Made by a program: the position numbers and the translations under genes. A stretch of DNA of 64,000 nt from Candidatus Obscuribacterales bacterium (lineage in GTDB: Bacteria > Cyanobacteriota > Vampirovibrionia > Obscuribacterales > Obscuribacteraceae): contig CBDDIJ010000002.1 in NCBI GenBank assembly GCA_965228855.1, positions 96,001-160,000 of the forward strand. Reading direction: 5' to 3'. The notes under the pieces are model-generated. The model was not told where the DNA came from. It saw only the letters and a list, made by a program, of their open reading frames with translations, and searched no databases. Positions 89-63,481 of this stretch are shown one piece after another (position 1 is the first letter of the stretch; every line of letters begins with the position of its first letter).

Positions 89-434
89 CGTCTACTATAC
101 TTTCGCGTATCAGCCAAACCGGGAGAAGCCCTACCAGGCATGGCTTTATAGACTTCCCCCCAAAAGAAGAGCCCCCAATCAACTCTCAGTGTCTACGACA
201 GAACGACGGATTTCAGAAAAATCGTCTACGAGCCATAGACAAACCGACAGACCTGACCGAACACCAGCACGCGAGGAAGTCCGCAAACCCGAAACTGGCA
301 AGCCTTCCGCCCGCTCAGACATCCCTCCCTAGAAACTAAATCCTATAGTAACAGTCCAACGGAAGTCCGCAAACCCAAAGCTGGCTAGCCTTCCGCCCGC
401 TCAGACGCCCCCTAGAAACTAAATCCTATAGTAG
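89..434. repeat. Arm-core-arm palindromic repeat element, locus 1 (duplicated right arm)
   Basis: Left arm CGTCTACTATA 89-99; core TGTCTA-CGACAGA-ACGACG-GATTTCAGAAAAAT-CGTCTA-CGAGCCA-TAGACA 190-241; right arms TATAGTAA 344-351 and TATAGTAG 427-434 within an ~86-bp tandem duplication (275/361). Confidence 0.85.
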
Positions 435-447
435 CGGCCCTCTCCAG

Positions 448-486
448 AAAAAAAGCGGTGCCACACCGCAATTGGTGTGGCACCGC
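448..486 (-). terminator. Rho-independent terminator
   Basis: 13-bp stem GCGGTGCCACACC/GGTGTGGCACCGC with A7 tract (U-tract on minus), just downstream of the 498 stop. Confidence 0.85.
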
Positions 487-497
487 CAAAGGTCACA

Positions 498-932
498 TCA
501 GACCTTGCGCAGCTGCTTGAGCAGCGAAACCAGCGTCTCGACTTCCTGATGGGAAGCCTCGCCGTCGGAGATGACGATCGTCAGACCGCTCGGATGGCCG
601 TTGACCATCGGCGGCATGATGTGCGCGGCGAGTTCGTGAGCGGCATGCAGCGCATAGTCGAGGTCGACGCCGGAGGCGGTGACTTCGATCAGGATGTCGT
701 GCAGCTCGCCGTTGTCCAGCGCCGGCTGGTTGGCGTAGGCGTCGTAGGCGTTGATGTGGTGCTGTGCGACATGAAGGGCCGCAGCATGAAGCCCGCGATG
801 AATGGTCGCCACGATGGCGGTGTTGTCGTGCGCGGCACGAGCAGGCGCGAAGGCCGCAGGGGACGCGACGGGCGCGGTATCGGCCGAACGATCGACGTTC
901 AGGGCGGGGGTCTGCTGTTGGGTTTGGTCCAT
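498..932 (-). CDS. hypothetical protein
   Basis: GC3-biased ORF, GGAGA RBS before ATG, own terminator. Confidence 0.7.
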   Translation of the reverse strand: MDQTQQQTPALNVDRSADTAPVASPAAFAPARAAHDNTAIVATIHRGLHAAALHVAQHHINAYDAYANQPALDNGELHDILIEVTASGVDLDYALHAAHELAAHIMPPMVNGHPSGLTIVISDGEASHQEVETLVSLLKQLRKV

Positions 933-1128
933 CAATTTCTCCAGGTGTGTTCAGGTTGCTTGCAGATAATTGGAAAGCCCGACTTCACTAAGTCGCGCCT
1001 TCCCCAAAGTAAGCTCGGTATCACGACCGCAAAACGCGATCGCTACTTCCGACACGACGTCGCCTGGGCGGCGTCGCAAACGTTAACGGTTCAGAATCAA
1101 AAACGAGACTGAACCGGCAAAGCAGGAA

Positions 1129-1689
1129 TTACCGGTGCGGAGGCTCGCCCGGATTGCGATCCCGGATGTTGGGACGCGAAGCGCCACCACTGCCATCCTT
1201 CTTGCCGACCGCGAGCGCGATCACGAACAGGACGATGGCGAGGAAGACGCCGCCGACACCGATGAAGATGGCGCCCTGAATGAATCCCGCGATGAAGGCG
1301 ATGATCCAGAGAAGCACCGCGGTGAAGGTTCCGTCGACGCCGATCTGCATGTTGACGTGCTCGAGCACGCCGGCACCGAAGGTGGCGACCACGAAGGCCC
1401 AGACGACGTCGGCGGCCAGCGCGACCATCATGATCTTGCGGATCACCGGCGGTGCCTTGGCGAAGGCGATCAGGAGCAGGGTGCCGAAGACGGAGCCGAC
1501 GACGGCGAAGACGGCACCCTGGAAGAGCGCGGCGACGAAGACGATGATCCAGCCGGAGACGCCGGTGAGGCTGCCCGTCGGAACGCCCGCGTAGGCGCTG
1601 AGGATGCTGGTGCCGAATGTGGCGAAGAGCGTCGCCCAGAGCACATCGAGCACGAGAACTGCGAATGCGTACTTTTTCAAGAAGGACAT
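1129..1689 (-). CDS. multi-pass membrane protein with internal two-fold repeat
   Basis: AAGGA RBS; two similar hydrophobic halves (DVLWATLFATFG...WIIVFVAALFQGA / DVVWAFVVATFG...WIIAFIAGFIQGA). Confidence 0.8.
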   Translation of the reverse strand: MSFLKKYAFAVLVLDVLWATLFATFGTSILSAYAGVPTGSLTGVSGWIIVFVAALFQGAVFAVVGSVFGTLLLIAFAKAPPVIRKIMMVALAADVVWAFVVATFGAGVLEHVNMQIGVDGTFTAVLLWIIAFIAGFIQGAIFIGVGGVFLAIVLFVIALAVGKKDGSGGASRPNIRDRNPGEPPHR

Positions 1690-2490
1690 GTTGATTCCTT
1701 TGGAAAGAGGTTTCAATTCACGACAACTCGCGCAAACCCAAACGCCGAACCAGACCCAGAAACAGACGCACGTGCCCTAACCACAAGCCCCGAATGGAAG
1801 CTTGAGTGCTGGAGGTTTCACTGGTGCGGACTGTGTGAGTAAGATTTGGTTTGAAAGAAATTCCGTTTGCGTTCGAGCGAGAAGTGCTTCTGTACTACCA
1901 GGCAACACACGCGCGCACAATATTTATGTGTTAAGAGCTATAAGCGCGCGCTTGATCACAAAGCGCAATAATTGCACCTATGGTTCCTAAACCGCTTACA
2001 GGCACGCGTTCTCCACACGCATATCCGCAGGACATCGACAAACTGTCAGTACACAATCGCGTTTTCGGTTTACATCGATCGTTGAACTCAGGTTCGCACA
2101 GTTAGCGATATTCGCAATAGATGCCCAAACGGTTTAACCCCAGATCATGTTCTAGATGAAGACAGGCTTGACGCCTTATGTTTACGAGTATGAACCACGA
2201 ACCGGAACATCTCGTTACACATCATTTCGTAATCTTTCAGGAGTACCAACTTCCTGATCTTGCTAGAAAAAATGCACCCATATCCCCACTCTCACCCGAA
2301 CCGGACCGCACATCTCTTTCGCCCAGCCTGAATGAAACCGCTCGCGCGCTCGCCCATCTGAGCCGTGCGTTCGATGCTTCGACTCAACACGAGCCGAATC
2401 ACACCGGCTAAGCGAATGATAAGCGTCTGATTGAGAGTCCTTCACACCAACTCCAGTCGGAGCTCACGCCCCGGCCGGAGACCATTTACG

Positions 2491-3567
2491 TTGAGCACGA
2501 AAATGAAACGACAGCGTTTCTTGCGCACCAACGCAAGACAACTTGGCGCTGCTCCGCTTGCGTCTTTGAGCGACAGCGCCATCTGGGAGGTCGCCGTATC
2601 TCCCATGGTCAAAGGTTTTCTCGGTTCGCGCGGCGAAGGTTTTTCGAAAGTCTTTGAGACTACCGAAGGACTTTTTCCCGGCGACAGTCTTTCCAACCTC
2701 AACGGCTGGTCGGTAAACGGCGACGAGACGGCGATTCGCAATCCCGTCGTCGGGCACTACTACCGCACCGCCAATGGTGCCTTCATCGTCAAACGCGACC
2801 ACGTCAAAATCAAGGCATTCGCCTGGTTCGGCGATGTTCTGGGCGGCAAGCCCGGCGAGCTGATCTTCAGCTGGGCGCTCCGCGACAGGCGTTTCGACGG
2901 AACCAAACGCGCCAACGACACGGCGCTGCTCGACTTTCCGTACGACGAGTGGCACAACGCGCCGCTGCTCATCAACGGGAAACAACTCGACGCCACCAGC
3001 GCCGAAACCTCACTGTACTCGTATCTCCCGGGAACCGGCATCGCCAAAGCGTGCGGCGACCAGGAATTCGAGGACTTCGTCGCCAGCCCGTACCGGTACA
3101 TCGACAAGCCGGATGTATTCCTGCGCCTGTTCGAAATCGCCTGGCGCTCCGAACGCTATCCGGGTCAGGTCTCGGTTCCCATCCCTGATGTCGGGAAACT
3201 GGCACACGCGTCGTGGGACAAACTTGCCACCAGATGCGGTTACGACTTTCTCGAAACCGCTCCCAGCCACCTGCACGTCTATGGCTGGAACTGCGCGAAG
3301 GGCTACGCCTGCAACAACAAGGAACAGCAAGCCGTGATCGCCGATTTCCAGGCGCGCGCAGCGAAACTGAAAGCCACCGGCTTCAAACTCTCGCGCCTCC
3401 AGGAATCGTGGCTGTTCGTCATCCAGAGCCTTCCGGCCGAATGCATCCCCGCCCCGCTCCACCTCGGCAGCGGCAAGTGGATGCAAAACAACATCGACCA
3501 GAACAACCTCTGGCTGTACAAACCCCTGAGCGAAAAAGCAAAACAGCTGATCGCCCAGGCCAACTAA
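2491..3567 (+). CDS. hypothetical protein, possible GNAT-like C-terminal segment
   Basis: Long biased ORF, GGAG before TTG 2491 (start uncertain), followed by terminator; PDVGKLAHASWDKLATRCGYDFLE...CAKGY loosely resembles GNAT motifs A/B. Confidence 0.75.
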   Translation: MSTKMKRQRFLRTNARQLGAAPLASLSDSAIWEVAVSPMVKGFLGSRGEGFSKVFETTEGLFPGDSLSNLNGWSVNGDETAIRNPVVGHYYRTANGAFIVKRDHVKIKAFAWFGDVLGGKPGELIFSWALRDRRFDGTKRANDTALLDFPYDEWHNAPLLINGKQLDATSAETSLYSYLPGTGIAKACGDQEFEDFVASPYRYIDKPDVFLRLFEIAWRSERYPGQVSVPIPDVGKLAHASWDKLATRCGYDFLETAPSHLHVYGWNCAKGYACNNKEQQAVIADFQARAAKLKATGFKLSRLQESWLFVIQSLPAECIPAPLHLGSGKWMQNNIDQNNLWLYKPLSEKAKQLIAQAN

Positions 3568-3571
3568 CAAA

Positions 3572-3609
3572 CTAGTCCGGCTCCCCCCAGGATCCGGACT
3601 AGCCTTTTT
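3572..3609 (+). terminator. Rho-independent terminator
   Basis: CTAGTCCGG...CCGGACTAG stem followed by CCTTTTT. Confidence 0.8.
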
Positions 3610-3615
3610 CAAACC

Positions 3616-3990
3616 CGTCTACTATATGCCCGCATTAAACCCGTCTACTATATGCCGACATATCTTCGCAACACCCAAAGCGCAGTACAGGCATGCTTTT
3701 CCACTCCTACGTCACTTCTCAGTTCCACGCAAAACCCGGTTTTGGCTATCCAGCTACGACGGATTTAGGAATTTCCGGCAACGAGAGAGCGCCAGAACCA
3801 TCTACTATATGCCGACATACCCTCGCGACACCCGAAGCGCAGTCTATGCAGGCGTATCCAGCCCTGCATCCCTTTCCAATTTACTTAGAAACCCGGTTTT
3901 GGCTATCCAGCTACGACGGATTTAGGAATTTCCGGCAACGAGAGAGCGCCAAAACGGGATTGCTGCGCGCCTCTACTATACGCCCTCATA
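3616..3990. repeat. Repeat element locus 2: tandem arm-core units (period 157 bp)
   Basis: CTACTATA arms at 3619, 3645, 3802, 3973; identical 52-bp cores at 3743-3794 and 3900-3951, each 98 bp after an arm. Confidence 0.9.
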
Positions 3991-4168
3991 TTCCCAGACT
4001 CACGAAAAACGGCGCCCACAGCCAGGACTATCCTGAACCGTGAGCGCCGAAGTCAGACTTAAGAACAAACACCGCGCATGGGTAGCGCCACGACGGCGTT
4101 TCCAGAAAGAGTGTTCGCGCGGAGCAGGAGCGGAGCAGGCGCTGTCAGCCGCAGCCGCGCTCAAGCCA

Positions 4169-5578
4169 CTAAGCGCGCAGCGTGAACCTATCGATCTCCT
4201 GTCCATCAGTCGTCACCTGACGAACAGTCACACTATCCGCCCCGAAATCCAGCACCGTGAGCGAGTTTCGATCGTCACAGACCTTCAGTGAGTAGGACTC
4301 CTGCTCCAGGTTGGACGGACGAACATCCGGCTCCTGAAGCGAACCTCCAGCGCCGGACACGATATAGATAACGCCCTGAGGCTGACAGTTCGTCATCCCA
4401 TCGAACTGCTCATCGACAGTCACGGTCCCTTGCGGATTACGTTTTCGCCCGGTCGCATCATCATTCAACCGATACCTGATCGGTCGATGCCGCTGATAAA
4501 AGTGGCAGTGACCGCTGAACACGACCTGAACGTCTAACTCCTCGAAGATCGGCGCCAAAACACGCATTCGGCGATCGCTTCTGTACTTCGCATCCCCGTT
4601 GAACCCGGGTTGGTGAAACGACACGAAGCGCCACTTGTAGTTTCGCCCTCGCGAAAGCGTGGTCCGAAGCCACTTTTGCAACTCCGGCTCGCGCCAGTCC
4701 ATGTATTTGTTGGCGTCCAGAATCGTCCACTGCACATCGCCCTGATACAACGCAAAGTTGGAGCGTCGAACAAAATCAGGACCGATGCACCGCAGCAGTT
4801 CGAGCCCCTCCGCGTTCTCGCCAACCATATCGCGAAGCCCCGACGCGCTCAGACGCGGACCATTATTAGCCTGGCGAAATATTCGAAAAAAACCGAATGC
4901 GTCCTCGTCGCTCACCGGCTTGACCTTGTCCGCGTCCTTCGGGAGGCGCACATCGTGGTTGCCTGCCGCCGCGACCACAACCGTAGTGCGCGCAAGCGGA
5001 ACGCCCGAGCTCGGTCCGTTGAAAACCGGCTCGTAGTGCATCTTATACTCGCGCAGCAAACCACTCTTGTACACGATGTCGCCAGAAACCAGCACCATAT
5101 CCGGTGCCAAACCCAGAGCACACTCGGCAATATCGCTCGCGCCCGCCGCTCCATCAGCGAAGTCGCCAAAGAGCACAACACGCTGTTTCAAGGCTCCAAT
5201 CGGAAACTTCGCATGCGACTCGAACACGCGTGCTCCATCGATCTCGAGCCTGTACGCGACGTCCGCATCGCTCTCAAACTCGATCATTGCCTCCAGACGA
5301 TGACATACATCACCCTCCCAGGCAAACGAATCGACTTCACGAACGCGCAGCGGCAGCCACTCGCCACGGTTTCGACTCCAGATCGAAACCGACCAGCGCT
5401 TCCGTCCGGCGAAAGACAACCACACCAACGAAAGGGACTGCTTGCGCCCCTTCCGGTTGGATTTGCCGCCCCATTGCAGCATCGGTTTTAAAACAAAAAC
5501 GCCCGGCGAATCCTCGCTCAAATTACCGTTGAGCGCTGGCGTCGCCAGACTGGAAACTGCTGGTGATGCAGCTTTCAT
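4169..5578 (-). CDS. metallophosphoesterase (purple acid phosphatase-like)
   Basis: Motifs FGDF, SGDIVY, GNHD, SFHQP, FSGHCH, YIVSGAGG; start uncertain (ORF open to 5623). Confidence 0.9.
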   Translation of the reverse strand: MKAASPAVSSLATPALNGNLSEDSPGVFVLKPMLQWGGKSNRKGRKQSLSLVWLSFAGRKRWSVSIWSRNRGEWLPLRVREVDSFAWEGDVCHRLEAMIEFESDADVAYRLEIDGARVFESHAKFPIGALKQRVVLFGDFADGAAGASDIAECALGLAPDMVLVSGDIVYKSGLLREYKMHYEPVFNGPSSGVPLARTTVVVAAAGNHDVRLPKDADKVKPVSDEDAFGFFRIFRQANNGPRLSASGLRDMVGENAEGLELLRCIGPDFVRRSNFALYQGDVQWTILDANKYMDWREPELQKWLRTTLSRGRNYKWRFVSFHQPGFNGDAKYRSDRRMRVLAPIFEELDVQVVFSGHCHFYQRHRPIRYRLNDDATGRKRNPQGTVTVDEQFDGMTNCQPQGVIYIVSGAGGSLQEPDVRPSNLEQESYSLKVCDDRNSLTVLDFGADSVTVRQVTTDGQEIDRFTLRA

Positions 5579-5630
5579 TGTTTCAGGTCCTTTCAGATTG
5601 TCCGTTTGGCTCGAAACCCTCAAGCCCTTT

Positions 5631-6751: not shown

Positions 6752-6902
6752 CGTCTACTATATCTTTTAAGATAATATAAATCCGCAAACACGGTTATGG
6801 ACTCCGCTTCCAGCCATTCAATATTCTCGCTCCGTCGATTTCCAGCCAGCTGTCTACGCTGCATAGACGAATTTTCGAAAATCTGTCTACGCCACGCAGA
6901 CA
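6752..6902. repeat. Repeat element locus 3: left half (arm then core) upstream of PLD-HTH gene
   Basis: CTACTATA 6755; core TGTCTA-CGCTGCA-TAGACG-AATTTTCGAAAATC-TGTCTA-CGCCACG-CAGACA 6851-6902. Confidence 0.85.
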
Positions 6903-7073: not shown

Positions 7074-7847
7074 ATGATCGCAACCGAGTCAGATATTTTC
7101 ACGGACGAAACCTTCTGGGACCCCTTCTACACCGACCTTGCCAAAGCCCACAAAAGCATCATCATCAGCTGTCCATTCGTGCGACGGTGGCGGCTCGATC
7201 GACTCGAATACCAACTTAAAACAATGATTCGAAACGGAATTTCCGTTTGTATTTTCGTTCAGACCCCGGCTAGTCTTCGCAAAGAGAAGGGCAATCTCTC
7301 AGCAGAAGAAGATCGCGAAATCTGCGACTACGAGCGGGATATTAAACGCATGAGCACCTGGAAAGCACACGTCACCGAACGACCGCGCGCGCATCAAAAG
7401 TTCGCGATAATCGACGGAACGAAGCTCTGGGAGGGGAGCTTGAACATACTGAGCCACAGAGATGGCGCCGAACACATGCGGAGATTCGACTCCAGATATG
7501 AAGCTGAACGCGTGACAAAACTGCATGAGCTGGACCGCTGTTTCGACTGTGAAGTCTTGAGAGCAAAGTATTTTGTCGCCGCGCCCAATGTGGAACTACA
7601 AAGGCAAATGATTGCGCACGCGATTCACTCGCATCGGAAGTACCAGAAATTTTCGTTGCGTGATTTGAGCGCCGCCAGCGGTGTCGCGCACCAACGAATC
7701 AGTCAAATCGAAAACGCCAAGTACTTACGCGCTATAGACCCGCTCTTCGAGATATTCAATGCCTTGGGTCTGCGATTGATTGTCGCTCAAGCGGATGACG
7801 TTTCTGCGGTGTTGAACCAGATTGATATACGAAGTGCAGCTCGGTAA
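7074..7847 (+). CDS. PLD-family nuclease domain fused to XRE-type helix-turn-helix
   Basis: GAGGAGG RBS; single HKD motif HQKFAIID...WEGSLNIL; CFDC linker; C-terminal FSLRDLSAASGVAHQRISQIEN HTH. Confidence 0.9.
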   Translation: MIATESDIFTDETFWDPFYTDLAKAHKSIIISCPFVRRWRLDRLEYQLKTMIRNGISVCIFVQTPASLRKEKGNLSAEEDREICDYERDIKRMSTWKAHVTERPRAHQKFAIIDGTKLWEGSLNILSHRDGAEHMRRFDSRYEAERVTKLHELDRCFDCEVLRAKYFVAAPNVELQRQMIAHAIHSHRKYQKFSLRDLSAASGVAHQRISQIENAKYLRAIDPLFEIFNALGLRLIVAQADDVSAVLNQIDIRSAAR

Positions 7848-7885: not shown

Positions 7886-8148
7886 TGGCTATCCTGCTAT
7901 GACGGAAATGCGAACATTCGGCATTCCAGGATAGCCAAACCGTACCAAGCTCAATGGCATCCGTCTCGAAACCTCGACCCAGCGCCATGTTCAAGAAAGA
8001 CGCATCATGACTTCATATAGTAGTAAGGATGGGAGAATTCGGCATTCCAGGATAGCCAAACCAGGGCGAGCTCAAGGGGCATCCCACCGAAACCCCCGAC
8101 ACAGAGCCACATCGGAGATAAGCTTACCACGATGTCCTATAGTAGCAA
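7886..8148. repeat. Repeat element locus 4: right halves (core then arm, twice) downstream of PLD-HTH gene
   Basis: Core 7886-7937 (TGGCTATCCTG...CAGGATAGCCA), arm TATAGTAG 8016-8023, half core ending 8058, arm 8138-8145. Confidence 0.85.
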
Positions 8149-9677: not shown

Positions 9678-9689
9678 AGCGATAACTCC

Positions 9690-17619: not shown

Positions 17620-17770
17620 TGCCTACTATATGATTTCATATCTTTAAAATCCCGAAACACCGAACGGACAATCACTTCGGGTCCCTCCAGATCAACCATC
17701 CTGATCAAAAATGACTTTTGTCTACGACTCGTTGCCGGATTTCACGAAAAGCGGCAACGCCCCATAGACA
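17620..17770. repeat. Repeat element locus 5: arm then core
   Basis: CTACTATA 17623; core 17719-17770 TGTCTACGACTCG...CCATAGACA. Confidence 0.85.
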
Positions 17771-27910: not shown

Positions 27911-28140
27911 GAGCGGACATAGCAATGCCGTCACCTGTTCCTGCGGAGATGAGCGGAACGACGATGCCGTCACCGCTTCTGCTGAGATGACAGGAACGGC
28001 AACGCCGGACCCACTTCTGCGGGGATTAAGTGAACGGCATTGCCGAGACCCACTTCTGCGGGACTGAAAGGAACGGCAACGTCGGCACCCACTTCAGCGG
28101 GACTGAGCGGAACGGCATTGCCGAGACCCGTTTCTGACAT
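27911..28140. repeat. tandem array of six 38-40 bp degenerate units
   Basis: Consensus about GAGCGGAACGGCAWYGCCGAGACCCACTTCTGCGGGACT; units start near 27911, 27951, 27989, 28027, 28066, 28105. Confidence 0.85.
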
Positions 28141-34475: not shown

Positions 34476-34783
34476 CGCCTACTATATGCCAACGTATCCT
34501 CGGACTCCCAAAACCCTTCCCAGGCAGTCTTCTTCGAGGACTACTCCCGTCCCATAGCCTTGTTTTGCTCACTTTGGCTACGGTGGAATGACGGATTTTC
34601 GAAAATCCGGCAACGTACCGTAGACAAAACCCTGCTTACTATATGCCGACGTATCCTCCAATTCACGAAAACCTCTCTAGCCGGTCTTTTTCAAGGACAG
34701 CTCCTTGCTCGCCCTCTCGTTTTGCTCACTTTGGCTACGGTGGAATGACGGATTTTCGAAAATCCGGCAACGTACCGTAGACA
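34476..34783. repeat. Repeat element locus 6: tandem arm-core units (period 157 bp)
   Basis: Arms 34479 and 34636; identical cores 34575-34626 and 34732-34783, each 96 bp after its arm. Confidence 0.9.
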
Positions 34784-36052: not shown

Positions 36053-36306
36053 CGCCTACTATACCCCGAAGTATCCGCATCATCCGGAGACCTCCCGCAG
36101 GGCTGGCATTCTCAGGATCAGTACTCAACGTTTCCTCACCAAAACCCTCGCTTTGGCTATCCTGCAATGACGGAATCGGCTAAATCCGTCATCGCAGGAT
36201 AGCCAAAGACTTCTTTTTCAGAAGGCGCCAAAGCGATTAAGAGCCTAAAAACCCCACCATGAGCTACTTGCCGGGATTTACGAGATACGCCCGCATATAG
36301 TAGTAT
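36053..36306. repeat. Repeat element locus 7: symmetric arm-core-arm element
   Basis: CTACTATA 36056, core 36154-36205, TATAGTAG ending 36303 (98 bp each side); extra right arm 36385-36392. Confidence 0.92.
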
Positions 36307-36478
36307 ATCGGGAGACGCCAGAGCAAAAAAAGCCCGAAAAGATGCCGTGGCGGGCGTTGCTCGATGCGCGTCTCCACGCCTGCATATAGTAACAAAACCG
36401 CACAAAAGCAATCAGAGCCGCATTACTGCGGATGATTGCCTTGAGTCCGACTGGACTCGTGCGACCTGCTAAGCATGC

Positions 36479-38571: not shown

Positions 38572-38824
38572 TGCCTACTATATACCACAGCATAAGCCAA
38601 ACCGACAAAAGCCATTACCCGCATGGTTTTCAGCCAATCTTCAAGCTCACTCTTGATCGAAACCCGACAGTTTGGCTATCCCACTACGACGGAATTCGCA
38701 AAATCCGGCATTCCCTGATAGACACCGAGCCGAAAATCGACCCGCTTGAAGGTACAAAAACTTCGAAAACCACCACTGAGAAGCCATCGGGCAAAACCGT
38801 TTATACTGCCTTTTATAGTAGACT
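38572..38824. repeat. Repeat element locus 8: symmetric arm-core-arm element
   Basis: CTACTATA 38575, core 38673-38724, TATAGTAG ending 38821 (98/97 bp). Confidence 0.9.
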
Positions 38825-38902: not shown

Positions 38903-40777
38903 TTAGGCGGCTTTGGAAAGCCGCTGGAAGCCGGTCGTGAAGTACTCCAGTTCACGCCGAGACTTGCTCGACAGGTACTTCGGAGTGAAGAAGCGGTCCT
39001 GCCACTTCGCCGTGGGCTCCAGGCTGGCCTCGAACGTGCCCCCGTCGTTGCGGACCATCGACCGGAACCGGTAGTGGTCGTAGACGTCGAGGATGTGCGC
39101 GAGGTACGCAGCAGCGAGGCGATGGTTGCCACGAACGATGAGGAGGTTCTCGTCGTTGGAGTAGCTCGCCTTGAAGCCCAGGTTGTGGCTGCCGAGGATG
39201 ACCACCGGGTCGTCGCCGAACGGGTCGACCACCACGATTTTGTCGTGAATGATCGAGTGGGCTTCCGGAAGCTTCAGAAGCTCCTTCTGCCACTTGCCGA
39301 CCGCCGTTTCCAGCGAATCGGCGGCGATGATCACCGGCCGCTTCTTGTCGTGGTGGAAGATCTGAACCGGGGCTGCCACTTGCGCGGCGGCGGTCAGATC
39401 CGCGAAGGTCCCGCTCACGTCCGGCGAGATGATGCCAGCCGCAGAGCCGTCAGCCGAACTCGCCGGGACCAGCAGACCCGATTCACCGCGAACGAAGCGG
39501 TTGGGCTGCTGAGGCGTGAACGGCTTGGGCAGAGCCTGCGGGCTGGACACCGCGCCGCGGTAGAACAGGTGCTTCTTCCCGAACTGCATCCCGTTGATCT
39601 TGCTGATGATCGAGGGGAAGCCCGGGTAGAACGCGAGGAAGTAGACGCCTTCCTTCGCGCCGTCGATCGCGTCGAAGACTTCGCCCATGTCCACGGGAAC
39701 GGGAGGCTTGGTCTTCGGCTTCACCTTCTCGACGGTGTTGGGCGAGAACCACGCCTGAATGCGCGTCCCGTCCTTGAGCACGACTTCCTTCGGCTTCTTG
39801 CGATTGAAATCGCGGAGCGCCGTGCCCTGCAGTTCGCCCTTGTCGGTGTCTTCCTTGAGGGCGTCCCAGGCCGCGCCGTAGATCTCGCCGAGTTCCTCGG
39901 AGATGACCGACAGCGCGTTGTTGGACTGGCAGCAGAGACCCGTGAACGTCGAGTTCGCACTCGCCGTCAGAACCTCCACCGGGCGACCAGCCTTGTTGTA
40001 CCGCACGTGGGACTTGTTGTGCGGCAGCGACGACTTGGGCAGGATGCGGTCGTGAACTTCCGCTTCCGCCTCATGCAGACGCTTGCGGGCATCCGCGTTG
40101 GTCTCGTCGTTCTCGCCGGCGTTGCCGAGGATGAGGCTGAACACGTCCGTGTTCGCCAGCAGGAAGTCGACGATCTCGGGGTCGGCAAGCTCATAGAGCG
40201 CCGAGTACACGTGACCGTCTTCCGCCTTGGCTCGCTCGAACACGCCCTTGATGAAGCCAGGCAGTTCGCCGGCGAGCATCGTGCGAATCGGGCTGTCCGG
40301 CTTCTTCAGCTCCTCGATGAGCTTCTCGGGGTCGGGACTGCCGTCCTCGAGCTTGGGCAGCATCGACGCCAGCTTCTGCGTGGACAGGATGCCGCGGTTG
40401 AAGCAGGCCTTCATCTGGTCGCTGATCTCGGTCGAGCGCGTCACTTCGTTGGTCGTGACCGCCATCTCGGCGAGAGGCTTGAGATTGTCGGGCTCGCCGA
40501 CCATCGGCACGATTTCGTACTTGTAGGTCTCGCCGGTCTTGCCGCCGAAATCCTTCCACTTGAAACCCTGAATGGGCCACTCGTCCGTGGTACGCGAAGT
40601 CCAGCCTTCGCCGTCCTTCTTCTGGCTGGGGAACGGCAAGTACGCCGGAAGCGTAAACTTCTCGCCGGTCGCGACGTTGATGCGGCGCACCGAGAAGCCG
40701 AGGCAGTTCTCGATGGCCTTGTCGGTCAACCAAACGATGACCGAGCAGGTGTTGTTTCCGAATGCTACAGCTTTCAT
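38903..40777 (-). CDS. phospholipase D-like protein with two HxK motifs
   Basis: HNK...SANST...QSNNA and HDKIVVVD...GSHN...NDEN; AAGGAG RBS. Confidence 0.9.
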   Translation of the reverse strand: MKAVAFGNNTCSVIVWLTDKAIENCLGFSVRRINVATGEKFTLPAYLPFPSQKKDGEGWTSRTTDEWPIQGFKWKDFGGKTGETYKYEIVPMVGEPDNLKPLAEMAVTTNEVTRSTEISDQMKACFNRGILSTQKLASMLPKLEDGSPDPEKLIEELKKPDSPIRTMLAGELPGFIKGVFERAKAEDGHVYSALYELADPEIVDFLLANTDVFSLILGNAGENDETNADARKRLHEAEAEVHDRILPKSSLPHNKSHVRYNKAGRPVEVLTASANSTFTGLCCQSNNALSVISEELGEIYGAAWDALKEDTDKGELQGTALRDFNRKKPKEVVLKDGTRIQAWFSPNTVEKVKPKTKPPVPVDMGEVFDAIDGAKEGVYFLAFYPGFPSIISKINGMQFGKKHLFYRGAVSSPQALPKPFTPQQPNRFVRGESGLLVPASSADGSAAGIISPDVSGTFADLTAAAQVAAPVQIFHHDKKRPVIIAADSLETAVGKWQKELLKLPEAHSIIHDKIVVVDPFGDDPVVILGSHNLGFKASYSNDENLLIVRGNHRLAAAYLAHILDVYDHYRFRSMVRNDGGTFEASLEPTAKWQDRFFTPKYLSSKSRRELEYFTTGFQRLSKAA

Positions 40778-41166: not shown

Positions 41167-41463
41167 AATCTACGATAAATCGCAAGGTCTCCTAACTCGC
41201 GCGAGAGGGTCAACGCGAACAATCACGAAGCTCGCGCGCCGTCTAATCTTCCTCCCCGTCAACGAGCCAGCGACAAAATTCACCAGATCCGTCGCTCTCT
41301 GATTGACAGGGCTCCCGTCGGACAACTCTAAACTCGACCTGTCAACGAGCCAGCGACAAAATACACCAAATCCGTCGCTCTCTGATTGACAGCGCGCCTC
41401 AAAATCCATTTTGTCAACGAGCCGGCGACGAAATCCGCAAAATCCGTCGTGACGAGGAAGGTT
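41167..41463. repeat. Repeat element locus 9: one arm plus three variant cores
   Basis: CTACGATA 41170; cores YGTCAACGAGCC...GATTGACA at 41257-41308 and 41340-41391; partial core from 41412. Confidence 0.8.
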
Positions 41464-49289: not shown

Positions 49290-49502
49290 TGTCTACTAGC
49301 TCATTCAGGGAAATGCCTACTAACTCATTCAGTATCACTTTTCTGCGCCAGTATGCGTTTTCAAGCTTCAAAATCCTACTAGCTCATTCAGTATCATTTT
49401 TCAGCGCCAGTAAGCATTTCGGGCTTTCGAGCCCCTACCAAGAGAGGGCTTGTCTACGACCGATAGACGGATTTCGGAAAAAGCGTCAATCAGTCGTAGA
49501 CA
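49290..49502. repeat. Repeat element locus 10: three arm variants plus core
   Basis: CTACTARCTCATTCAG at 49293, 49317, 49376; core 49451-49502. Confidence 0.85.
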
Positions 49503-49596: not shown

Positions 49597-49864
49597 CGCG
49601 CAGGTCGCTGCAATCTTGATTGCAGGTTTCCAAAGAAAAGCTGCAAACTAATTTGCAGCTCCCTGAATTTCGACTCGAACGTCAACGACTTGGTGCTTCG
49701 CGCAGGTCGCTGCAATCTTGATTGCAGGTTTCCAAAGAAAAGCTGCAAACTAATTTGCAACTGCCTGAATTTCGACTCGAACGTCAACGACTTGGTGCTT
49801 CGCGCAAGTCGCTGCAATCTTGATTGCAGGTTTCCAAAGAAAAGCTGCAAACTAATTTGCAGCT
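49597..49864. repeat. 102-bp tandem repeat (about 2.6 copies) with two palindromes per unit
   Basis: Units at 49597, 49699, 49801; CTGCAATC-TT-GATTGCAG and AGCTGCAAA-CTAA-TTTGCAGCT. Confidence 0.9.
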
Positions 49865-49875
49865 GCAACTTCCTT

Positions 49876-50442
49876 TTACTTCTTATGACCACCCTTGCCG
49901 CTCCAGTGAATTTCCCAATTCGACCGTGGTATCGAAATCGGAAATCGTTGATTACGCATCGACAAAACCATCTTCTGGCCGCTCTCGAATGCCTTGGTTC
50001 GCCTCCCATTTTTCACGTACGTTTTGGCAAAGACATTCAATTCATCGGGGCGCCGAACTTGAAACTCCACACCGCGCCAGACCGAATAGTCCATCAAAAG
50101 ACTCACGTGACGAACAATCATATCGCCAGACGTCAGGTTCAGCCCTCTTAGCCCCTCCGGAACGTCCGCGAGCTGCTCTACGGAAACCGTCCCCTCACAA
50201 TCAGGCGCGATCAGCCGAACAAGAAGATAAGGGCAGTTCGGATCTCCTTCCTTGTAAACGCACGTGATTCGTTTCACATACGCTCCCGTTTCAGATCGAT
50301 CCAGGTAGGACTGAAGTTCCTCAAGTTTCATCGGCCGCTGCGGTAGGTTTTCCTCCGCAGAAAAACCGAACAAGAGACCGCCGAACACGGCGATGCCTGC
50401 CGACGCACAGGCGAATATCAAAAGCTGCTTACCTTTTCTCAT
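49876..50442 (-). CDS. membrane-anchored hypothetical protein, paralog family A
   Basis: TM then MKLEEL...VKRITC...LLVRLIAP. Confidence 0.7.
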   Translation of the reverse strand: MRKGKQLLIFACASAGIAVFGGLLFGFSAEENLPQRPMKLEELQSYLDRSETGAYVKRITCVYKEGDPNCPYLLVRLIAPDCEGTVSVEQLADVPEGLRGLNLTSGDMIVRHVSLLMDYSVWRGVEFQVRRPDELNVFAKTYVKNGRRTKAFESGQKMVLSMRNQRFPISIPRSNWEIHWSGKGGHKK

Positions 50443-55942: not shown

Positions 55943-56026
55943 TTCACCAGGCACGGGCACCACCCTTGCCGCCTGCCGCGCTCTGGCACAATTCCATGCG
56001 CGGCGACACACCAGCACGGAGGGCAC

Positions 56027-57340: not shown

Positions 57341-58465
57341 ATGCCGAGCATCGAACGCGAATTCCTCATGATTCCTGGTCCGACACCTGTTCCGGATCGA
57401 GTCCTCGCCGCTATCGCGAAGCACCCGCTGGGTCACCGCAGCCCGGACTTCTCCGATATCTTGATGGAAGCAATCGACGGTCTCAAGTGGTTCGGCGACA
57501 CACAAAACGAGCCCCTCATCCTCACTTCGTCGGGAACAGGCGGAATGGACGGCGCGATCGCGAACACTGTGAATCGTGGCGAAAAGGTATTAAGCCTGGT
57601 TTGCGGAGTATTCGGCGAACGTTTCGCAAAAATCTCCGAAGCCTACGGCGCTGACGTAACCAGACTGAAAGCCGAATACGGTAAACCGATCGATCCCGAG
57701 GCAGTAAGAGAAGCGCTAGCCAAGGACACAAAGAAAGAGATCAAAGCTGTCACAGTCACACATAATGAAACATCGACCGGCGTAATCAATGATTTAAAAA
57801 CCATCGCTCAAATCGTAAAAGAGCATGGCGCCTTGATCCTCGTCGACGCAGTTACGAGTTTCGGCGCGACACCTGTTCCGATCGACGAGTGGAAACTCGA
57901 CATTGTCGTGACTGGAAGCCAGAAAGCGCTGATGCTTCCGCCTGGTCTCGGCTTCGCATTCGTGAGCGAAGACGCCTGGAAAGCAGTCGAGAAGTCGACA
58001 CAGCCGCGTTTTTATCTCGACTTCAAAAAATATTTAAAGTCTCAGAAGGAACGCACAACACCGTTCACGCCTAACGTTTCATTCATCGCCGGTTTGACCG
58101 AATCGATCAAAATGATGAAAGAAGAAGGCAAAGAAAATATCTTCAAACGCCATCTGCATCTTCGCGATACTCTCAGAGCGGGCGTTCGCGAACTCGGTTT
58201 AAAAACCGTTGTAGACGATTCGTGCGCATCGCCAACTATTACATCGATCTGGCCACCAGATTCAATCGATGTACCGACCATTCGAAAACAGCTCAAGGAG
58301 CGCTTCCGCATCACCGTCGCAGACGGACAGGAAGAGCTAAAGGGCAAAATTTTCCGCATGGGACACATGGGATATGTTTTCGAACGAGACCTGGGAATGG
58401 CTCTCTATGCGCTTAAGCAGATAGTTGGTAAACCAGCGGCGAAGAAAGAAGAAGCGCACGTTTAA
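57341..58465 (+). CDS. class V PLP aminotransferase (alanine-glyoxylate/serine-pyruvate family)
   Basis: MIPGPTPVP, HNETSTG, DAVTS, GSQKALMLPPG, FRMGHMG. Confidence 0.95.
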   Translation: MPSIEREFLMIPGPTPVPDRVLAAIAKHPLGHRSPDFSDILMEAIDGLKWFGDTQNEPLILTSSGTGGMDGAIANTVNRGEKVLSLVCGVFGERFAKISEAYGADVTRLKAEYGKPIDPEAVREALAKDTKKEIKAVTVTHNETSTGVINDLKTIAQIVKEHGALILVDAVTSFGATPVPIDEWKLDIVVTGSQKALMLPPGLGFAFVSEDAWKAVEKSTQPRFYLDFKKYLKSQKERTTPFTPNVSFIAGLTESIKMMKEEGKENIFKRHLHLRDTLRAGVRELGLKTVVDDSCASPTITSIWPPDSIDVPTIRKQLKERFRITVADGQEELKGKIFRMGHMGYVFERDLGMALYALKQIVGKPAAKKEEAHV

Positions 58466-58613
58466 AATCTGCGCCGAAGCAAATCAGATTTTGATATCTA
58501 ATCAGTTTGGTTCAGAAACTTTCTGGGTCGAATAGTCGTGACTGTTTAGCTCCGAAAGGGCTGTTTTTGGGCACAATAATGGAACACCGCCTATTACCCG
58601 GAGCGCCCATAAA

Positions 58614-59159
58614 ATGACCGGAGATTCGAGAAAGGATGCACCGCCGCCGATGTCCCTGAAAGAGTATCAGGAGTACCAGCAAGCCGAGAAAGACATCGAG
58701 CGCATCAAAGACATGGTGATCAATTTGGCGCATGAGCACGCGTCGAAGTATCTTGGTCCACCGGATTTGAACTTGTGGAAGCAAGAGTTGGCGTACCTGA
58801 AGAAAAATCCACTCGATCCGGAGCGGCGCGAATTGCTTTTGACACTGGCGAAATCAGCTAGCTTCATGCCCATGTCGTGGAAAGACTTTCCGGAAAGTTA
58901 CGCGGTGCGATCCTATTTTTCGGAAAATTTAGAGCGATTGATCGGTGAGTTTGGTCATGAAGAGGTTCATCAACTCTTGCTCGAATATTTTGCTGGTGCG
59001 ATCCGCCTTGAGGAAAACCGCGACGACAAGTCGGCGACGGTTTTCTCCAACAAGAAGTTGTGTGCCGCATTTCGGCTGGTCATGAGCGTCGGCGCATGTG
59101 ACGCGGTAAAACAAATTTACGCGACTGAATATGAGGCGCCAGAGGCGGAAGAAACATAG
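58614..59159 (+). CDS. hypothetical protein
   Basis: GGAG RBS, helical ORF. Confidence 0.65.
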   Translation: MTGDSRKDAPPPMSLKEYQEYQQAEKDIERIKDMVINLAHEHASKYLGPPDLNLWKQELAYLKKNPLDPERRELLLTLAKSASFMPMSWKDFPESYAVRSYFSENLERLIGEFGHEEVHQLLLEYFAGAIRLEENRDDKSATVFSNKKLCAAFRLVMSVGACDAVKQIYATEYEAPEAEET

Positions 59160-59275
59160 TGATCGAACGGTGATCGCAGGTCGATGTTATTTGTTAAACG
59201 TTCGCGCAAAGGCTATACTGCTGAGGTAATCGGTATTACAATCACCTTGAAACCTTGCAGGTCACGGGGCCAAAT

Positions 59276-60316
59276 ATGAAGAGGTTTAAGAGCAGCAAAC
59301 GCTCGACGCAAAACCGCAAACAGCGCCTCAAGCCGCTTCTGCAGATAGCGACCGTAGTCGCCGGCGCGCTGCTCGTCGCGGGCGGCGCCCCACAGCCAGC
59401 AAACGCCTATTACTACTACCCGTTCTATTACCGTGGCATTTCGAATCTTCTGTATCCACTGAGATACGCTTCGTACGGGCTTTTCGGACTGGGCGGACCT
59501 GTGAGTTCGTGGACTTCGGCGTCGCCGTATCGCCTCGCGACCGGCAGGTTGACTGGCTATCCGTATATGTACGGTCCGCAGACAATGATGAATTATCAGG
59601 ACCCCGAACCCTACTATCAGCCGAGAAACCGCGTCAAACAGAAGCGTCTCGGGCAAGAATTCGGCGTTGATGAAGTCAACCATGCGCAATGGGCGGACGG
59701 AAACGACGACGCCCGACTCGCCACAGCGCCACCGCAGGCGGTGCAAGGCGGTTACGCTCAAGGCGCGACTCCCGGTCAGATTTCGTACAGTGGTGCGCCT
59801 CCTATATATCCAGCTGGAGCAGGTTTGCCCACGGCGACTCCCACTCAGTTCGGCATTCCCGCCGGCTATTCCCTGGTGCCAAATGGTTTGCCGACTACTC
59901 CAACTCCAGGACCCGACGGCATGCCGCCCACGCCACCGCCCATGGTATCAAAGGGTCCGGTGTCGCTTGCGCCGAACGCGCATGATCTATCTCCAATCGC
60001 AGCGGGTGGAACACCGAGAGCCCCACTAGCAGACGGTTTCGTTAATCACGTCAACACTCAATTTGGCGGCAATATAGAAACAGCACTCTTTGATCCATCC
60101 ACTCGAAAATATGCAAAAGTTTTAGGTCTTGTTTCCGACGACAACTTATTCGGCATGGACTTCACGAACACGCGAGTCGAACTCATCAAACAGATTTTCA
60201 ATGACACGTCGATTGACAGCGTCAGCAAACTAGGCGCAATCAAGATTTTGTTGAACGGTAGCGCAGCAAACTCAGCGCCCGCGAAGAACACCAATGGCGC
60301 GAACCGCGCTAAGTAG
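59276..60316 (+). CDS. secreted Tyr/Pro-rich hypothetical protein
   Basis: Basic N-region plus signal (ANA), Pro-rich linker. Confidence 0.75.
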   Translation: MKRFKSSKRSTQNRKQRLKPLLQIATVVAGALLVAGGAPQPANAYYYYPFYYRGISNLLYPLRYASYGLFGLGGPVSSWTSASPYRLATGRLTGYPYMYGPQTMMNYQDPEPYYQPRNRVKQKRLGQEFGVDEVNHAQWADGNDDARLATAPPQAVQGGYAQGATPGQISYSGAPPIYPAGAGLPTATPTQFGIPAGYSLVPNGLPTTPTPGPDGMPPTPPPMVSKGPVSLAPNAHDLSPIAAGGTPRAPLADGFVNHVNTQFGGNIETALFDPSTRKYAKVLGLVSDDNLFGMDFTNTRVELIKQIFNDTSIDSVSKLGAIKILLNGSAANSAPAKNTNGANRAK

Positions 60317-60649
60317 CACAGATTAGAACTTAGCTGAGAAGTAGGTAATGGCAGGTTAATCAAGGCTGGCATTGCAGCGCTCCACCTCTTTACAGCCGCT
60401 TCAAACAGGCAACTGGCGCGGTCCCGGCAAATAGGTTTCCAGCGACGAAGTTTTTCGCAGACAGTCAGCCCTAATTGAATACAGTAGATGCCTGTAATTA
60501 GACTGATGATACTTATTTCGTTTCTGATTCAAAAACCTGACTTTCTAATAGCTCACAACTAGGCATCCTCCACCTCGAAGAACCACCAATCATGCGGCTT
60601 AGCGCTTGATTGGACTTGTCGTGGTCGCTGCAAATCGAAAGGAACCCTC

Positions 60650-61285
60650 ATGTCCGCGCCGAAAGACCGCTTCGCGAGTCTTCCGGCTTTGATGTCCGAG
60701 CTTTCGGAAAACAAAGACTTCGTCATCCGCTCCCGCAAAAGGCGCAGCAAGGTGACGGTAATCTCTCCCCACGGCGGCTACATCGAACCTGGTACTTCTG
60801 CAATCGCGGAAGCTGTCGCGGGGCGGACTTTCAACTTCTTCGACTTCCAGGGGCTCCAGGTTGAAAAACCATGGGAACTCCATGTGACGTCGACGAAGTT
60901 CCGCCATCCGACGCTTGATGTGCTGCTTTCGCGGTCGGTGCATGCGGTTTCGATTCACGGGATGGGAAAGGTCGACAGCTGGAACATCTGGCTGGGCGGT
61001 CTCAACACCTCGCTGAAAACCCGCATCGCAGAGTCGCTCACGAAGGAAGGCTTCGCGGTTCTCACTGAATTTCCGAAGTACAAGGGCGCCAATCCACGCA
61101 ACGTCGTGAACCTCGCCCAGAATAAAGGTGTTCAGCTCGAGCTGCCGTGCGACCTCATCGACGCAATGTTCGTCAAGGGAGAAACGTTTTCCGGTCCCGG
61201 CACAAAGCCAAAGACCACCCAACTGTTCAAGCGTTTCGTAAAAGCACTACGAACCGCCATTCTTGCCGAAACAGGGGCGCGCTGA
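60650..61285 (+). CDS. poly-gamma-glutamate hydrolase family protein (DUF867/PghP-like)
   Basis: PHGGYIEPGTS, LHVTSTKF, SIHG, GVQLEL. Confidence 0.88.
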   Translation: MSAPKDRFASLPALMSELSENKDFVIRSRKRRSKVTVISPHGGYIEPGTSAIAEAVAGRTFNFFDFQGLQVEKPWELHVTSTKFRHPTLDVLLSRSVHAVSIHGMGKVDSWNIWLGGLNTSLKTRIAESLTKEGFAVLTEFPKYKGANPRNVVNLAQNKGVQLELPCDLIDAMFVKGETFSGPGTKPKTTQLFKRFVKALRTAILAETGAR

Positions 61286-61327
61286 TGATGATGCTAAGGC
61301 ATCTCCCGCGCCCCTCACCACAACATT

Positions 61328-61612
61328 TTCCTACTATATGCCGAAGTTTCTCCTTTCTCCCAAATCGCCTGCAAACAGGGCGTTTCGAGCAATGCCCTCC
61401 GCACCCGCCCCTTCTTTGTCTACGCCAGAGCGCCGGATTTCGCCAAATCCGTCTACGCCAGAGCGCCAAGACATTCTACTATATCCCCAAGTATCTACCT
61501 TCTCCAGGAGAGCCCGTGTCTAGAGCGTTTCGAGCAATGCCCTCCTCCGTTCCCCTCCTTTGTCTACGCCAGAGCGCCGGATTTCGCCAAATCCGTCTAC
61601 GCCAGACCGCCA
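61328..61612. repeat. Repeat element locus 11: tandem arm-core units (period about 144 bp)
   Basis: Arms 61331 and 61476; cores 61417-61468 and 61561-61612 (86/85 bp after their arms). Confidence 0.9.
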
Positions 61613-61634
61613 AACCCGAGTCCCAGGACGTAAC

Positions 61635-63191
61635 TCAACGCGTTCGCTCGCGCGCAACTTCGCTCCAAGCGGCGAGTTCCGCCTTCGAAGCGGTACTCGT
61701 GCGCGCCGCCTTCGCGTTTTTCATAACCCGAAGAAACTCCCCGTAAAACCTCTTCGCCTCCGCATGTCGCTTCAACGCCTCAAGCGCCTGTGCTTTGAAG
61801 AAGTAACCTTCAACCCAGTTCTCGTCCCAGAAAAGCGCTCCATTACAAGCCCAAAGCGCATGCTGAAATTCTTTGTTGCGATAAAACGCGATTGCGATCA
61901 ACCGCGACACCTGCTCCGCCATCGTCGAGTCAGAATGCGCAACCCAGATGAAATCAGCGATTGCACCGTCGTAATCGTGCATGTCCATCAAGATCTTGCC
62001 ATGCTGGTGGCGCGCCGACGCATCCGTCGGAGACTGTTTTAGCGCCTTATCTAGAACGCTCAAAGCGCCCTTATAGTCGCCCTTTTCACGCAATTTAAAG
62101 GCTTCCCGCATTCTCGAATCAAACTTTGAAGCGCCTGCGCCCCCACCGCCTTCTGCACCACCATCAGTGGCACCGCTACGTCCAAGAGCACCGCTCTTAG
62201 TACCACTCTTTTGAACACTGGCAACGGCATTTTCCACACTGGAAGAGTAAAAACCTACCGCCATATCTGGTTCATTAATAGACGCCAATTCGAGGTCACG
62301 ACTAGCTTTCGCCTTATCACCCACTTTTTCGTAAGCAAGCGCTCGCAACAAATAGATTCGCCAATAGCCCTTATTATTCTCCAGCGCGAGCGTATAATCT
62401 TTGATAGCTTTCTGGTAGTTCTTCAGAATGTAATAGCAGCGCCCGCGTATCATGTAAGCCAGACCATGCCTCGGATTCATCGCAAGCGTCTTGGTGTAGG
62501 CGTCAATTGCATCGTTAAGTCGATCGAGGTTTATGTACGTAGCGCCGCTAGTGAAAAACATCTGCGCATGCGGCTTTAGTGAACGCGCTTTCTCCAAATC
62601 ACGCAGCCCCAACTCCATGTCAAAAACATATGCGCGACTCGTACCCCGCCAATAAAGCGCGGCAACGTTGTTTGGCTCGAGCGCGAGAATGCGATCGCAG
62701 TCAGCCACTGCATTTTTAAAATCCTTACTGAGCACATAGCTCTTCGCCCTATAGACCAGAGCAGTAGTGCTTTTCGGATTACGTCGTATGATTGCACTAA
62801 AGTCCTTAATCGCAGAACCAAAACGCTCTTCCTGAAGAAAAATGCGTCCTCGCACCATCAACGCCTGGTCATCATCCGGCTTTTCCTTGAGTATGTTTTC
62901 TAAAACAGAAAGCGCTCGATCGATTTTTTTCTTATTGGCCAATGCAACGGCTAGTTGAAGCCGAGGGTTGAGCGGGATCGGTTTCCGGCTTTGCAGTTGC
63001 ACCTGCTGCAGTTTGTCCGGCGATAGATGCGACTCCTTTTTACTGAACTCGGTTCCAACGGACGCGGACCGCTCTCCAGCGTCCGAAGTTGCCTTTGCCA
63101 CCACCGGCGATGACACGATCGTTCCACCAGCCAGTAGCATAAATGCAAACGGCACAATGGGACACTTCACAAATGCTAGCAATTTTTCCAT
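61635..63191 (-). CDS. secreted TPR-repeat protein
   Basis: About 10 TPRs; start near 63191 (the ORF extension to 63362 runs into a repeat core). Confidence 0.85.
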   Translation of the reverse strand: MEKLLAFVKCPIVPFAFMLLAGGTIVSSPVVAKATSDAGERSASVGTEFSKKESHLSPDKLQQVQLQSRKPIPLNPRLQLAVALANKKKIDRALSVLENILKEKPDDDQALMVRGRIFLQEERFGSAIKDFSAIIRRNPKSTTALVYRAKSYVLSKDFKNAVADCDRILALEPNNVAALYWRGTSRAYVFDMELGLRDLEKARSLKPHAQMFFTSGATYINLDRLNDAIDAYTKTLAMNPRHGLAYMIRGRCYYILKNYQKAIKDYTLALENNKGYWRIYLLRALAYEKVGDKAKASRDLELASINEPDMAVGFYSSSVENAVASVQKSGTKSGALGRSGATDGGAEGGGGAGASKFDSRMREAFKLREKGDYKGALSVLDKALKQSPTDASARHQHGKILMDMHDYDGAIADFIWVAHSDSTMAEQVSRLIAIAFYRNKEFQHALWACNGALFWDENWVEGYFFKAQALEALKRHAEAKRFYGEFLRVMKNAKAARTSTASKAELAAWSEVARERTR

Positions 63192-63340
63192 ACCACTCAA
63201 ATGATTTAAGTGTACACCGTCGTATTCGCTCTGGCGAAGTTCGGACCCCGTCCTACATGCCGGTCGCTGCCGGTGAAACGTGATCATTTCAGGTTTCTCA
63301 GACGCCGTTCGTTGTACGCGCCAAACAGAGTCACGCATTT

Positions 63341-63481
63341 TGTCTACGTTGCTATGACGCAATCGGCGAAATCCGGCATCGCCACGTAGCCAAACTTAAC
63401 CCACCCGAACGACCAAACCGACCAATCCCTCTCCCCCAGCCCGATTCCGGAACCCGTTTCTATGATTTTCTATAGTAGTAG
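63341..63481. repeat. Repeat element locus 12: right half (core then arm)
   Basis: Core 63341-63392; TATAGTAG 63471-63478 (86 bp). Confidence 0.85.

Follow-up and report, generated by a model that had tools for sequence, protein, structure and literature searches.

A dispersed two-box repeat in an Obscuribacterales genome and a PLD-XRE protein as its likely partner

The window analysed here, a 64,000-nucleotide stretch (positions 96,001 to 160,000 of contig CBDDIJ010000002.1) of a Candidatus Obscuribacterales bacterium (genome G000), an uncultured relative of cyanobacteria, contains a family of repeats, each built of a 52-bp core of two palindromic boxes and an upstream arm, and a gene (7074..7847, + strand) for a 257-aa protein with a phospholipase D-like (PLD) domain carrying an HKD motif, a CxxC motif and an XRE helix-turn-helix (HTH) domain. 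Judged from sequence, the repeat is a non-autonomous element, probably bound and propagated by this PLD-XRE protein. The best reading is a REPIN/RAYT-like system in which a putative PLD-XRE nickase would bind and cut double-stranded DNA. Since cognate repeats also lie beside PLD-XRE genes in other genera, the enzyme family likely binds and spreads them.

The core, its arm and the copied unit

An earlier note on this DNA had counted 16 full cores at 12 loci in the window, each of 52 bp (19-14-19), and partial cores ending at 8058 and starting at 41412; all of these were recovered. A matrix built from the 16 cores revealed 210 cores at 161 loci in the 8.2-Mb genome (199 distinct sequences), with scores of 31-66 bits; the interval of 14-31 bits was empty, and the reversed genome gave no matches. 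The fixed geometry claimed in the note held genome-wide, 194 of the 196 cores with two strong halves being 52 bp long; the invariant bases are G2, C4, G16, C18 and their mirror positions. The intergenic bias was confirmed as well, 204 of 210 cores lying outside called genes, and a core is found in 55 of 82 intergenic regions between convergent genes and in 10 of 135 between divergent ones. Genes were called with our own dicodon model, whose errors (e.g., the wrong strand for tldD/pmbA) make gene-relative counts approximate. A small open reading frame in the core was dropped, as its start and stop codons both result from one fixed G.

The arm, CTACTA(TA)-N7-GTA, lies upstream of the core and is present at 175 of 187 main-type cores, in 59 cases on both sides. 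The note had mentioned an arm associated with the cores; its fixed part is CTACTA(TA), the first arm begins at 92 and not at 89, and the idea that it is a third copy of the box fails, because YGKC-N11-GMCR fits 1 of 192 arms. The base before TACTATA is C in 186 of 194 arms. Counting one arm per locus and side, all 172 stand 74-76, 84-88, 94-100 or 107-111 bp from the core, i.e., in steps of about 11 bp (75/86/98/108). A motif-agnostic scan of offsets found 240 arms (185 exact and 55 with one mismatch) at 19 phased offsets, and only 5 (2 exact and 3 with one mismatch) at 26 trough offsets. Homologous linkers differ in length by 0-3 bp in 372 pairs and by 21-23 bp in 4 pairs (two events), and no difference of 4-20 bp occurs among those compared. 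The step matches the in vivo DNA looping repeat of 11.1-11.6 bp (PMC1762422), and the phasing is read as helical. Within the linkers, A-tracts and T-tracts occupy fixed offsets.

A strong hairpin ends 12-24 bp upstream (mode 14-15 bp) of 87 of the 178 outermost arms, whereas shuffled sequence gives about 10 such cases and 400 randomly chosen intergenic positions give 35; 82 of these 87 hairpins are located behind a stop codon. Arms facing gene starts (42/69) are nearly as common as those facing gene ends (53/69). Several other interpretations of the arm and its surroundings were rejected. TACTATA fits a sigma-70 -10 element on both strands but comes without a conserved -35, and the commonest in-phase variants, CTACTAGA (19/55) and CTACTAAA (6/55), alter a base critical on both strands. 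The resemblance to a DnaA-trio is limited to two triplets and lacks an AT-rich region. The stretch ahead of the arm seemed hypermutable, at 17% compared with 4-6% farther upstream, but this idea was dropped, the rate being near those of linkers and four-fold sites.

For 29 of 35 and 18 of 24 tandem duplications, the start falls no more than 12 bp from the arm (expected 8.0 and 4.6). They are one-ended, beginning at the arm and ending at any point downstream, and the tandem spacers are locus-specific duplicates. In five groups of distant copies the shared stretch runs exactly from the arm to the end of the core, the flanks being 10-43% identical. The copied unit, of about 140-150 bp, is thus the CTACTA arm to the end of the two-box core. 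Neither terminal inverted repeats nor target-site duplications were seen in five ectopic pairs and six filled/empty alignments.

The PLD-XRE gene and its homologs

The gene at 7074..7847 (Pfam PLDc_2 and HTH_3) lies between two inverted units whose cores are 172 and 41 bp away. The left unit (6755..6902, + strand) has its arm at 6755-6762, offset by 96 bp from the core at 6851-6902; the right one (7886..8145, - strand) has a core at 7886-7937 and an arm at 8016-8023 (86 bp), and contains a one-ended duplicate, the half-core ending at 8058 with an arm at 8138-8145. This is likely the master locus of the family. Residues H107, K109, D114, G121, S122 and N124 are invariant in 32 alignment rows, and the HKD motif is present in all 28 homolog frames extracted. 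The structure is predicted with a pLDDT of 92, its fold matching NucT, Nuc and Zucchini, while the HTH is closest to those of HipB and C-proteins. The pN/pS of the gene is 0.05. The PLD half alone had no significant sequence match in PDB, and PADLOC and NCBIfam gave only domain-level, below-cutoff matches for PLD-XRE.

Paralogs are accompanied by repeats of their own. In G007, the only other genome rich in the repeat, a paralog with 54% identity, absent from G000, is flanked at 40 and 108 bp by arrays of a TGTCAA subfamily (73-bp); in G007 this subfamily amounts to 45 cores, grouped into arrays of up to 6, whereas G000 has 7 over the corresponding range, all of them singletons. Another G000 paralog (C2:1043k) adjoins an array of TGCA boxes 33 bp apart, a family with 26 strict matches at 9 loci. 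One of these loci is in the window (49608..49862; 33-bp period, 102-bp unit, within a tandem repeat spanning 49597-49902). This second two-box family had escaped the earlier note, as had the phasing of the arms, the unit ends, the one-ended duplications and the flanked PLD-XRE gene. All five G000 paralogs lie inside or at the edge of the origin domain described below. One paralog without a core (L146, C2:1001.9-1003.8k) sits in a 1.9-kb insert, between two retained arms, that replaces a core present in G007; the arrangement resembles a homing or cassette-swap event.

The PLD-XRE family was found in 57 of 104 genomes of the bacterial family (single-protein search, the count including PLD-helicase fusions) and in none of 150 other genomes drawn from the phylum; 364 homolog clusters were collected at E values up to 1e-30. 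Two palindromic boxes 31-35 bp apart occur within 700 bp of 13 of 25 homologs, but at none of 23 control loci and in none of 25 shuffles. Outside G000 and G007 such pairs, with a different core of the same ~33-bp period, stand at 11 of 23 homologous loci in other Obscuribacterales (two doubtful). At 9 homolog loci checked, the boxes precede the gene in 5 cases and follow it in 4. Five homolog-adjacent cores, each searched in 5-8 genomes, proved confined to their own genomes, with 58, 15, 5, 4 and 1 copies. In the G013 family the accessory motif is not CTACTA but another one, situated about 36 bp out.

Several observations weigh against a partnership of enzyme and repeat. No two-box core was found at 12 of the 25 homologous loci or at 3 of the 4 other G000 paralogs, two positives (L264 and L281) look like short tandem repeats, one homolog-adjacent core is single-copy, as expected of a plain operator, and other genera have boxes on one side of the gene only. 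Other two-box families lack the CTACTA arm. Flanking in itself is shared, 4 G000 genes having cores within 200 bp on both sides (789 genes in the domain). Main-type tandems are also commoner in G007 (111 vs 87), assembly or strain effects may inflate the TGTCAA contrast, and array copies are not independent. The archaeal chromatin protein TrmBL2, which is among the fold matches, likewise has a PLD-like fold; duplication lengths in G000 show no more than a weak 10.4-bp periodicity (p ~0.03); and the bias of cores towards the origin domain is not accounted for.

Distribution, selection and insertion elements

In G000, 175 of 210 cores are located within C2:77 kb-1.215 Mb, a domain of 1.13 Mb (14% of the genome) that extends from -712 to +420 kb of dnaA (dnaA at 793 kb, skew minimum at 789 kb). 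The note's estimate of about one locus per 5 kb therefore applies inside this domain and not to the rest of the genome. GC content at third codon positions (GC3) is 0.62-0.81 in C2:0-1.2 Mb vs 0.52-0.57 elsewhere. Domain orthologs in congeners without the repeat have high GC3 too, with nearly the same values, which rules out the repeat as the cause.

Among the 104 family genomes only G000 (199) and G007 (183) carry the repeat in numbers. G006 has one true copy, on a 2.4-kb contig 86% like G000 that is probably misbinned, and six other single matches are at control level. Of 48 matching stretches in a species collection, a single Obscuribacterales record accounts for 46, and the other 2 are on a contig that is 92-93% like G000. 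Two metagenome assemblies contributed 70 stretches, which map to G000 with, for the most part, 78-98% identity, and contigs of four runs indicate that related strains carry the locus. The viral contigs searched held neither the core nor the PLD-XRE protein. The repeat is restricted to a tight clade. Congeners have palindromic repeats of their own (L023:5537-5716 in G005; G002:C1 at 21.9k, 28.2k and 51.6k), one of them at the 3' site of pmbA, the position taken in G000 by the master locus. A RAYT gene is present in G002.

Each of the 64 G000 loci that could be mapped is also occupied in G007, and in the reverse direction this holds for 63 of 67 (97 and 12 loci were unmappable; the comparison covered 1.26 Mb of G007). 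Of the sites in invariant columns, 1 of 240 had changed in 30 one-to-one orthologs and 3 of 504 in 63 best pairs, compared with 11.5% at four-fold sites and 13% in linkers. The box bases are under purifying selection; that individual copies are selected for implies that they have a role in the host.

Two IS621-like IS110 elements, with DEDD and Tnp20 domains, a long left end, and guides matching target and donor around a core, use the repeat as their target. Every IS110 copy lies inside a core (7/7 in G000 and 1/1 in G007), though cores make up 0.13% of G000; the G000 insertions are at C2:774.7k, 858.6k, 1120.8k, 197k and 988k and at C5:861k and 1461k, and the elements were also seen at L150. 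The target guides cover the outer half-site in one IS110 family and the inner half-site in the other. In one family a GT target core is joined to a CT donor core, and copies differ in their left guide, these differences matching some of the targets. Both elements carry a circle-junction promoter. IS621 targets REPs (PMC11208160), and ISPpu10 offers a further parallel (10.64898/2026.03.19.712850). The IS110 elements are later parasites of the repeat and not its replicator, a role for which they are too few and too recent. A related IS110 in G014 (L151) has the same non-coding scaffold and different target guides.

The remaining loci of the window show the same architecture with variations. A unit at 92..241 (+ strand; arm 92-99, core 190-241), with a hairpin ending 15 bp before its arm, is faced by two arms of a duplicated arm-linker (344..434, - strand). 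A terminator-like hairpin at 3572..3602 (+) ends 16 bp before arm 3619 of tandem units with a 157-bp period (3619..3980, +; arms 3619, 3645, 3802 and 3973, cores 3743-3794 and 3900-3951). Single units lie at 17623..17770 (+; arm 17623, core 17719-17770) and 63341..63478 (-; core 63341-63392, arm 63471-63478, 86 bp), and pairs of tandem units at 34479..34783 (+; arms 34479 and 34636, cores 34575 and 34732) and 61331..61612 (+; arms 61331 and 61476, cores 61417 and 61561). Double-armed cores are found at 36154-36205 (36056..36392; arm 36056 on the + strand, arms 36296 and 36385 on the - strand) and 38673-38724 (38575..38821; offsets 98 and 97 bp). An armless TGTCAA..TTGACA subfamily array at 41257..41463 advances in 83- and 72-bp steps, its third copy, from 41412, being partial, and the core at 49451..49502 has no exact arm. 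Five 38-39-bp tandem copies adjoining a hairpin (27922-28136) are unrelated to the core. A second PLD-domain gene (38903-40777, 624 aa) has an ortholog in G002; the cores on its two sides are 179 and 479 bp away, an arrangement that is probably coincidental.

Proposed mechanism, alternatives and significance

A possible mechanism may be outlined as follows. XRE dimers would bind both palindromic boxes on one helix face, and the bent linker would bring the dimeric PLD active site to the arm. The PLD dimer could then nick near the arm, across the loop, through a phosphohistidine intermediate, using the chemistry of BfiI, a single-HKD PLD dimer that forms a 5'-phosphohistidine and releases a 3'-OH (PMC2853115). 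This 3'-OH may prime strand-displacement synthesis and so give tandem copies starting at the arm, much as in the nick-primed model for tandem BIMEs, where TnpA-REP cuts within CTAC (PMC3333891). Insertion elsewhere would be rare, often just past terminator hairpins. In the weakest step, the bound protein would serve the host at gene 3' ends as a roadblock or insulator; our best guess for the host role is a roadblock behind weak-tailed hairpins, for which Pol I termination by a hairpin plus a roadblock (PMC12366685) and collisions in bacteria (PMC13082048) provide comparisons. More broadly, and tentatively, since we rate it somewhat short of probable, PLD-XRE proteins could form a new repeat-mobilising class of HTH-guided nickases that loop double-stranded DNA, nick in phase and replicate their own sites, with paralog-private repeats that in this clade were domesticated as post-terminator roadblocks throughout the origin domain.

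It is unlikely, in our estimate, that PLD-XRE is instead a regulator or chromatin protein whose operators, the cores, came to serve as roadblocks or loop anchors at the 3' ends of genes, while other machinery spreads the repeats and the nuclease domain has a different substrate. The kinship of the HTH with HipB and C-proteins, the presence of TrmBL2 among the fold matches, the excess of cores in convergent regions and the hairpins before about half of the outermost arms, reminiscent of hairpin-plus-roadblock Pol I terminators (PMC12366685), would all suit such a protein. It leaves the sharp unit ends, the one-ended duplications and the intact HKD of all homolog frames unexplained, however, and arms are almost as frequent on the gene-start side. 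Very improbable is a REP/BIME family amplified by a lost or missed HUH (RAYT-type) transposase, with the arm as a C|TAC cut site. The cut of TnpA-REP within CTAC and the nick-primed tandem BIMEs (PMC3333891), the C that precedes TACTATA and the IS110 targeting as in REPs speak for it; against it, no Y1/RAYT was found in G000 or G007 (95% and 91% complete), where PF01797 and NF047646 had no significant match and controls were positive, the helical phasing and the weak covariation of the hairpin suggest that the DNA acts in double-stranded form, and the cognate boxes beside PLD-XRE genes have no explanation. A search for serine resolvases found none, and Y2 transposases (IS91/ISCR) were matched in 0 of 5 genomes, the control likewise having no match anywhere.

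Slightly less credible again are centromere-like or topoisomerase-loading sites organising the origin domain. The concentration of cores around dnaA, the phased A/T tracts of the linker and the lack of ParB_N on the main contigs of five genomes searched are compatible with this idea, but congeners, in which ParB_N was not matched either, are devoid of the repeat; the boxes are invariant, in contrast to the gyrase motif, which is degenerate with a periodicity of 10.75 bp (PMC6379681); and the GC3-rich domain is older than the repeat. In these five genomes (G000, G007, G002, G005 and G006) ParB_N was found once, in a 727-aa frame on C4 of G000, and searching with this domain family revealed no chromosomal ParB. 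The least credible of all is that the cores are transcribed RNA hairpins which stabilise or terminate mRNAs. The near-complementarity of the N7 spacers reported in the earlier note is real but modest (3.57 vs 2.85 of 7 pairs, p<0.001), and paired N7 sites change less than unpaired ones (5% vs 12%, p ~0.02). The 52-nt hairpin suggested there is not supported as the functional form: the fold energy resembles that of random half-recombinants (-16.7 vs -16.0 kcal/mol), and one compensatory change was seen in 63 ortholog pairs. In most cases, moreover, a separate terminator-like hairpin precedes the core by about 100 bp, and 11-bp phasing is a property of DNA, so that support for an RNA hairpin is weak.

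The REPIN/RAYT-like reading can be set beside known systems. Like REPIN-RAYT and REP-BIME, the family comprises hundreds of short intergenic palindromic repeats with a 3'/convergent bias and locus-specific tandem amplification, an adjacent single-copy enzyme gene, an own repeat family for each enzyme, and IS110 targeting (PMC3333891, 10.1101/2021.07.10.451892, PMC11208160); the REP/REPIN-like behaviour suggested in the note is therefore borne out. The differences are a PLD nuclease with an XRE HTH instead of an HUH Y1 transposase, apparently double-stranded recognition of two boxes 33 bp apart plus a phased arm instead of a GTAG-footed single-strand hairpin, a unit of about 140-150 bp, and presence/absence of PLD-XRE genes between sister genomes. 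REPs are 20-40-bp stem-loops with GTAG or CGTC at the foot (PMC3733652); here many extragenic copies are likewise biased and tandemly amplified, but the core has 52 bp and two variable-centred boxes, and the GTAG of the arm stands 75-110 bp from it with no adjoining hairpin. Miniature inverted-repeat transposable elements are similarly non-autonomous, short and dispersed, but the copied unit here has no terminal inverted repeats, nor was target-site duplication seen. Integron attC sites have RYYYAAC..GTTRRRY ends and form cassette arrays; the core ends are YGKC..GMCR and the copies are dispersed among ordinary genes; the attC-like option is not supported. CRISPR arrays have identical repeats with unique spacers, whereas here 199 of 210 cores are distinct and the tandem spacers are locus-specific duplicates. 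A structured non-coding RNA is not supported either, the Rfam search having given no match, also in line with the note's view that the family is undescribed, and the compensatory change being a single one.

The protein shares with BfiI, Nuc, NucT and Zucchini one HxKxxxxD-GSxN motif per chain and the same predicted fold, and with BfiI the coupling of a DNA-recognition domain to a PLD domain; unlike in BfiI, an XRE HTH and CxxC replace the recognition domain, no methyltransferase was seen beside the gene, and cognate repeats are dispersed. HipB and C-protein operators consist of tandem short palindromic boxes bound by XRE dimers. The layout predicted here, with such boxes near the XRE gene itself, is similar, but the boxes lie on either side of the gene and are dispersed genome-wide. 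The protein-binding option of the note is among its readings that find support. Both IS110 elements resemble the IS621 type in having target guides that match the core. In the literature listings searched, which cover few subscription journals, there was no description of Obscuribacterales repeats or of PLD-XRE genes with cognate repeats, and supplementary IS110 target tables could list these elements; as far as searched, an enzyme-repeat partnership of this kind is undescribed.

Wherever a dedicated replicator of a bacterial repeat population is known, it is, to our knowledge, an HUH or a DDE transposase. If confirmed as a replicator, a PLD nuclease that works independently of metal would be a new route to mobile DNA, and its family would constitute a naturally diversified set of candidate site-specific nickases, with the binding sites of each apparent from the sequence next to its gene. 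The system also gives an independent case for asking why REPIN-like populations persist, through host benefit or selfishness, and it documents how the bridge RNAs of IS110 elements have, in nature, been retargeted to a single repeat.

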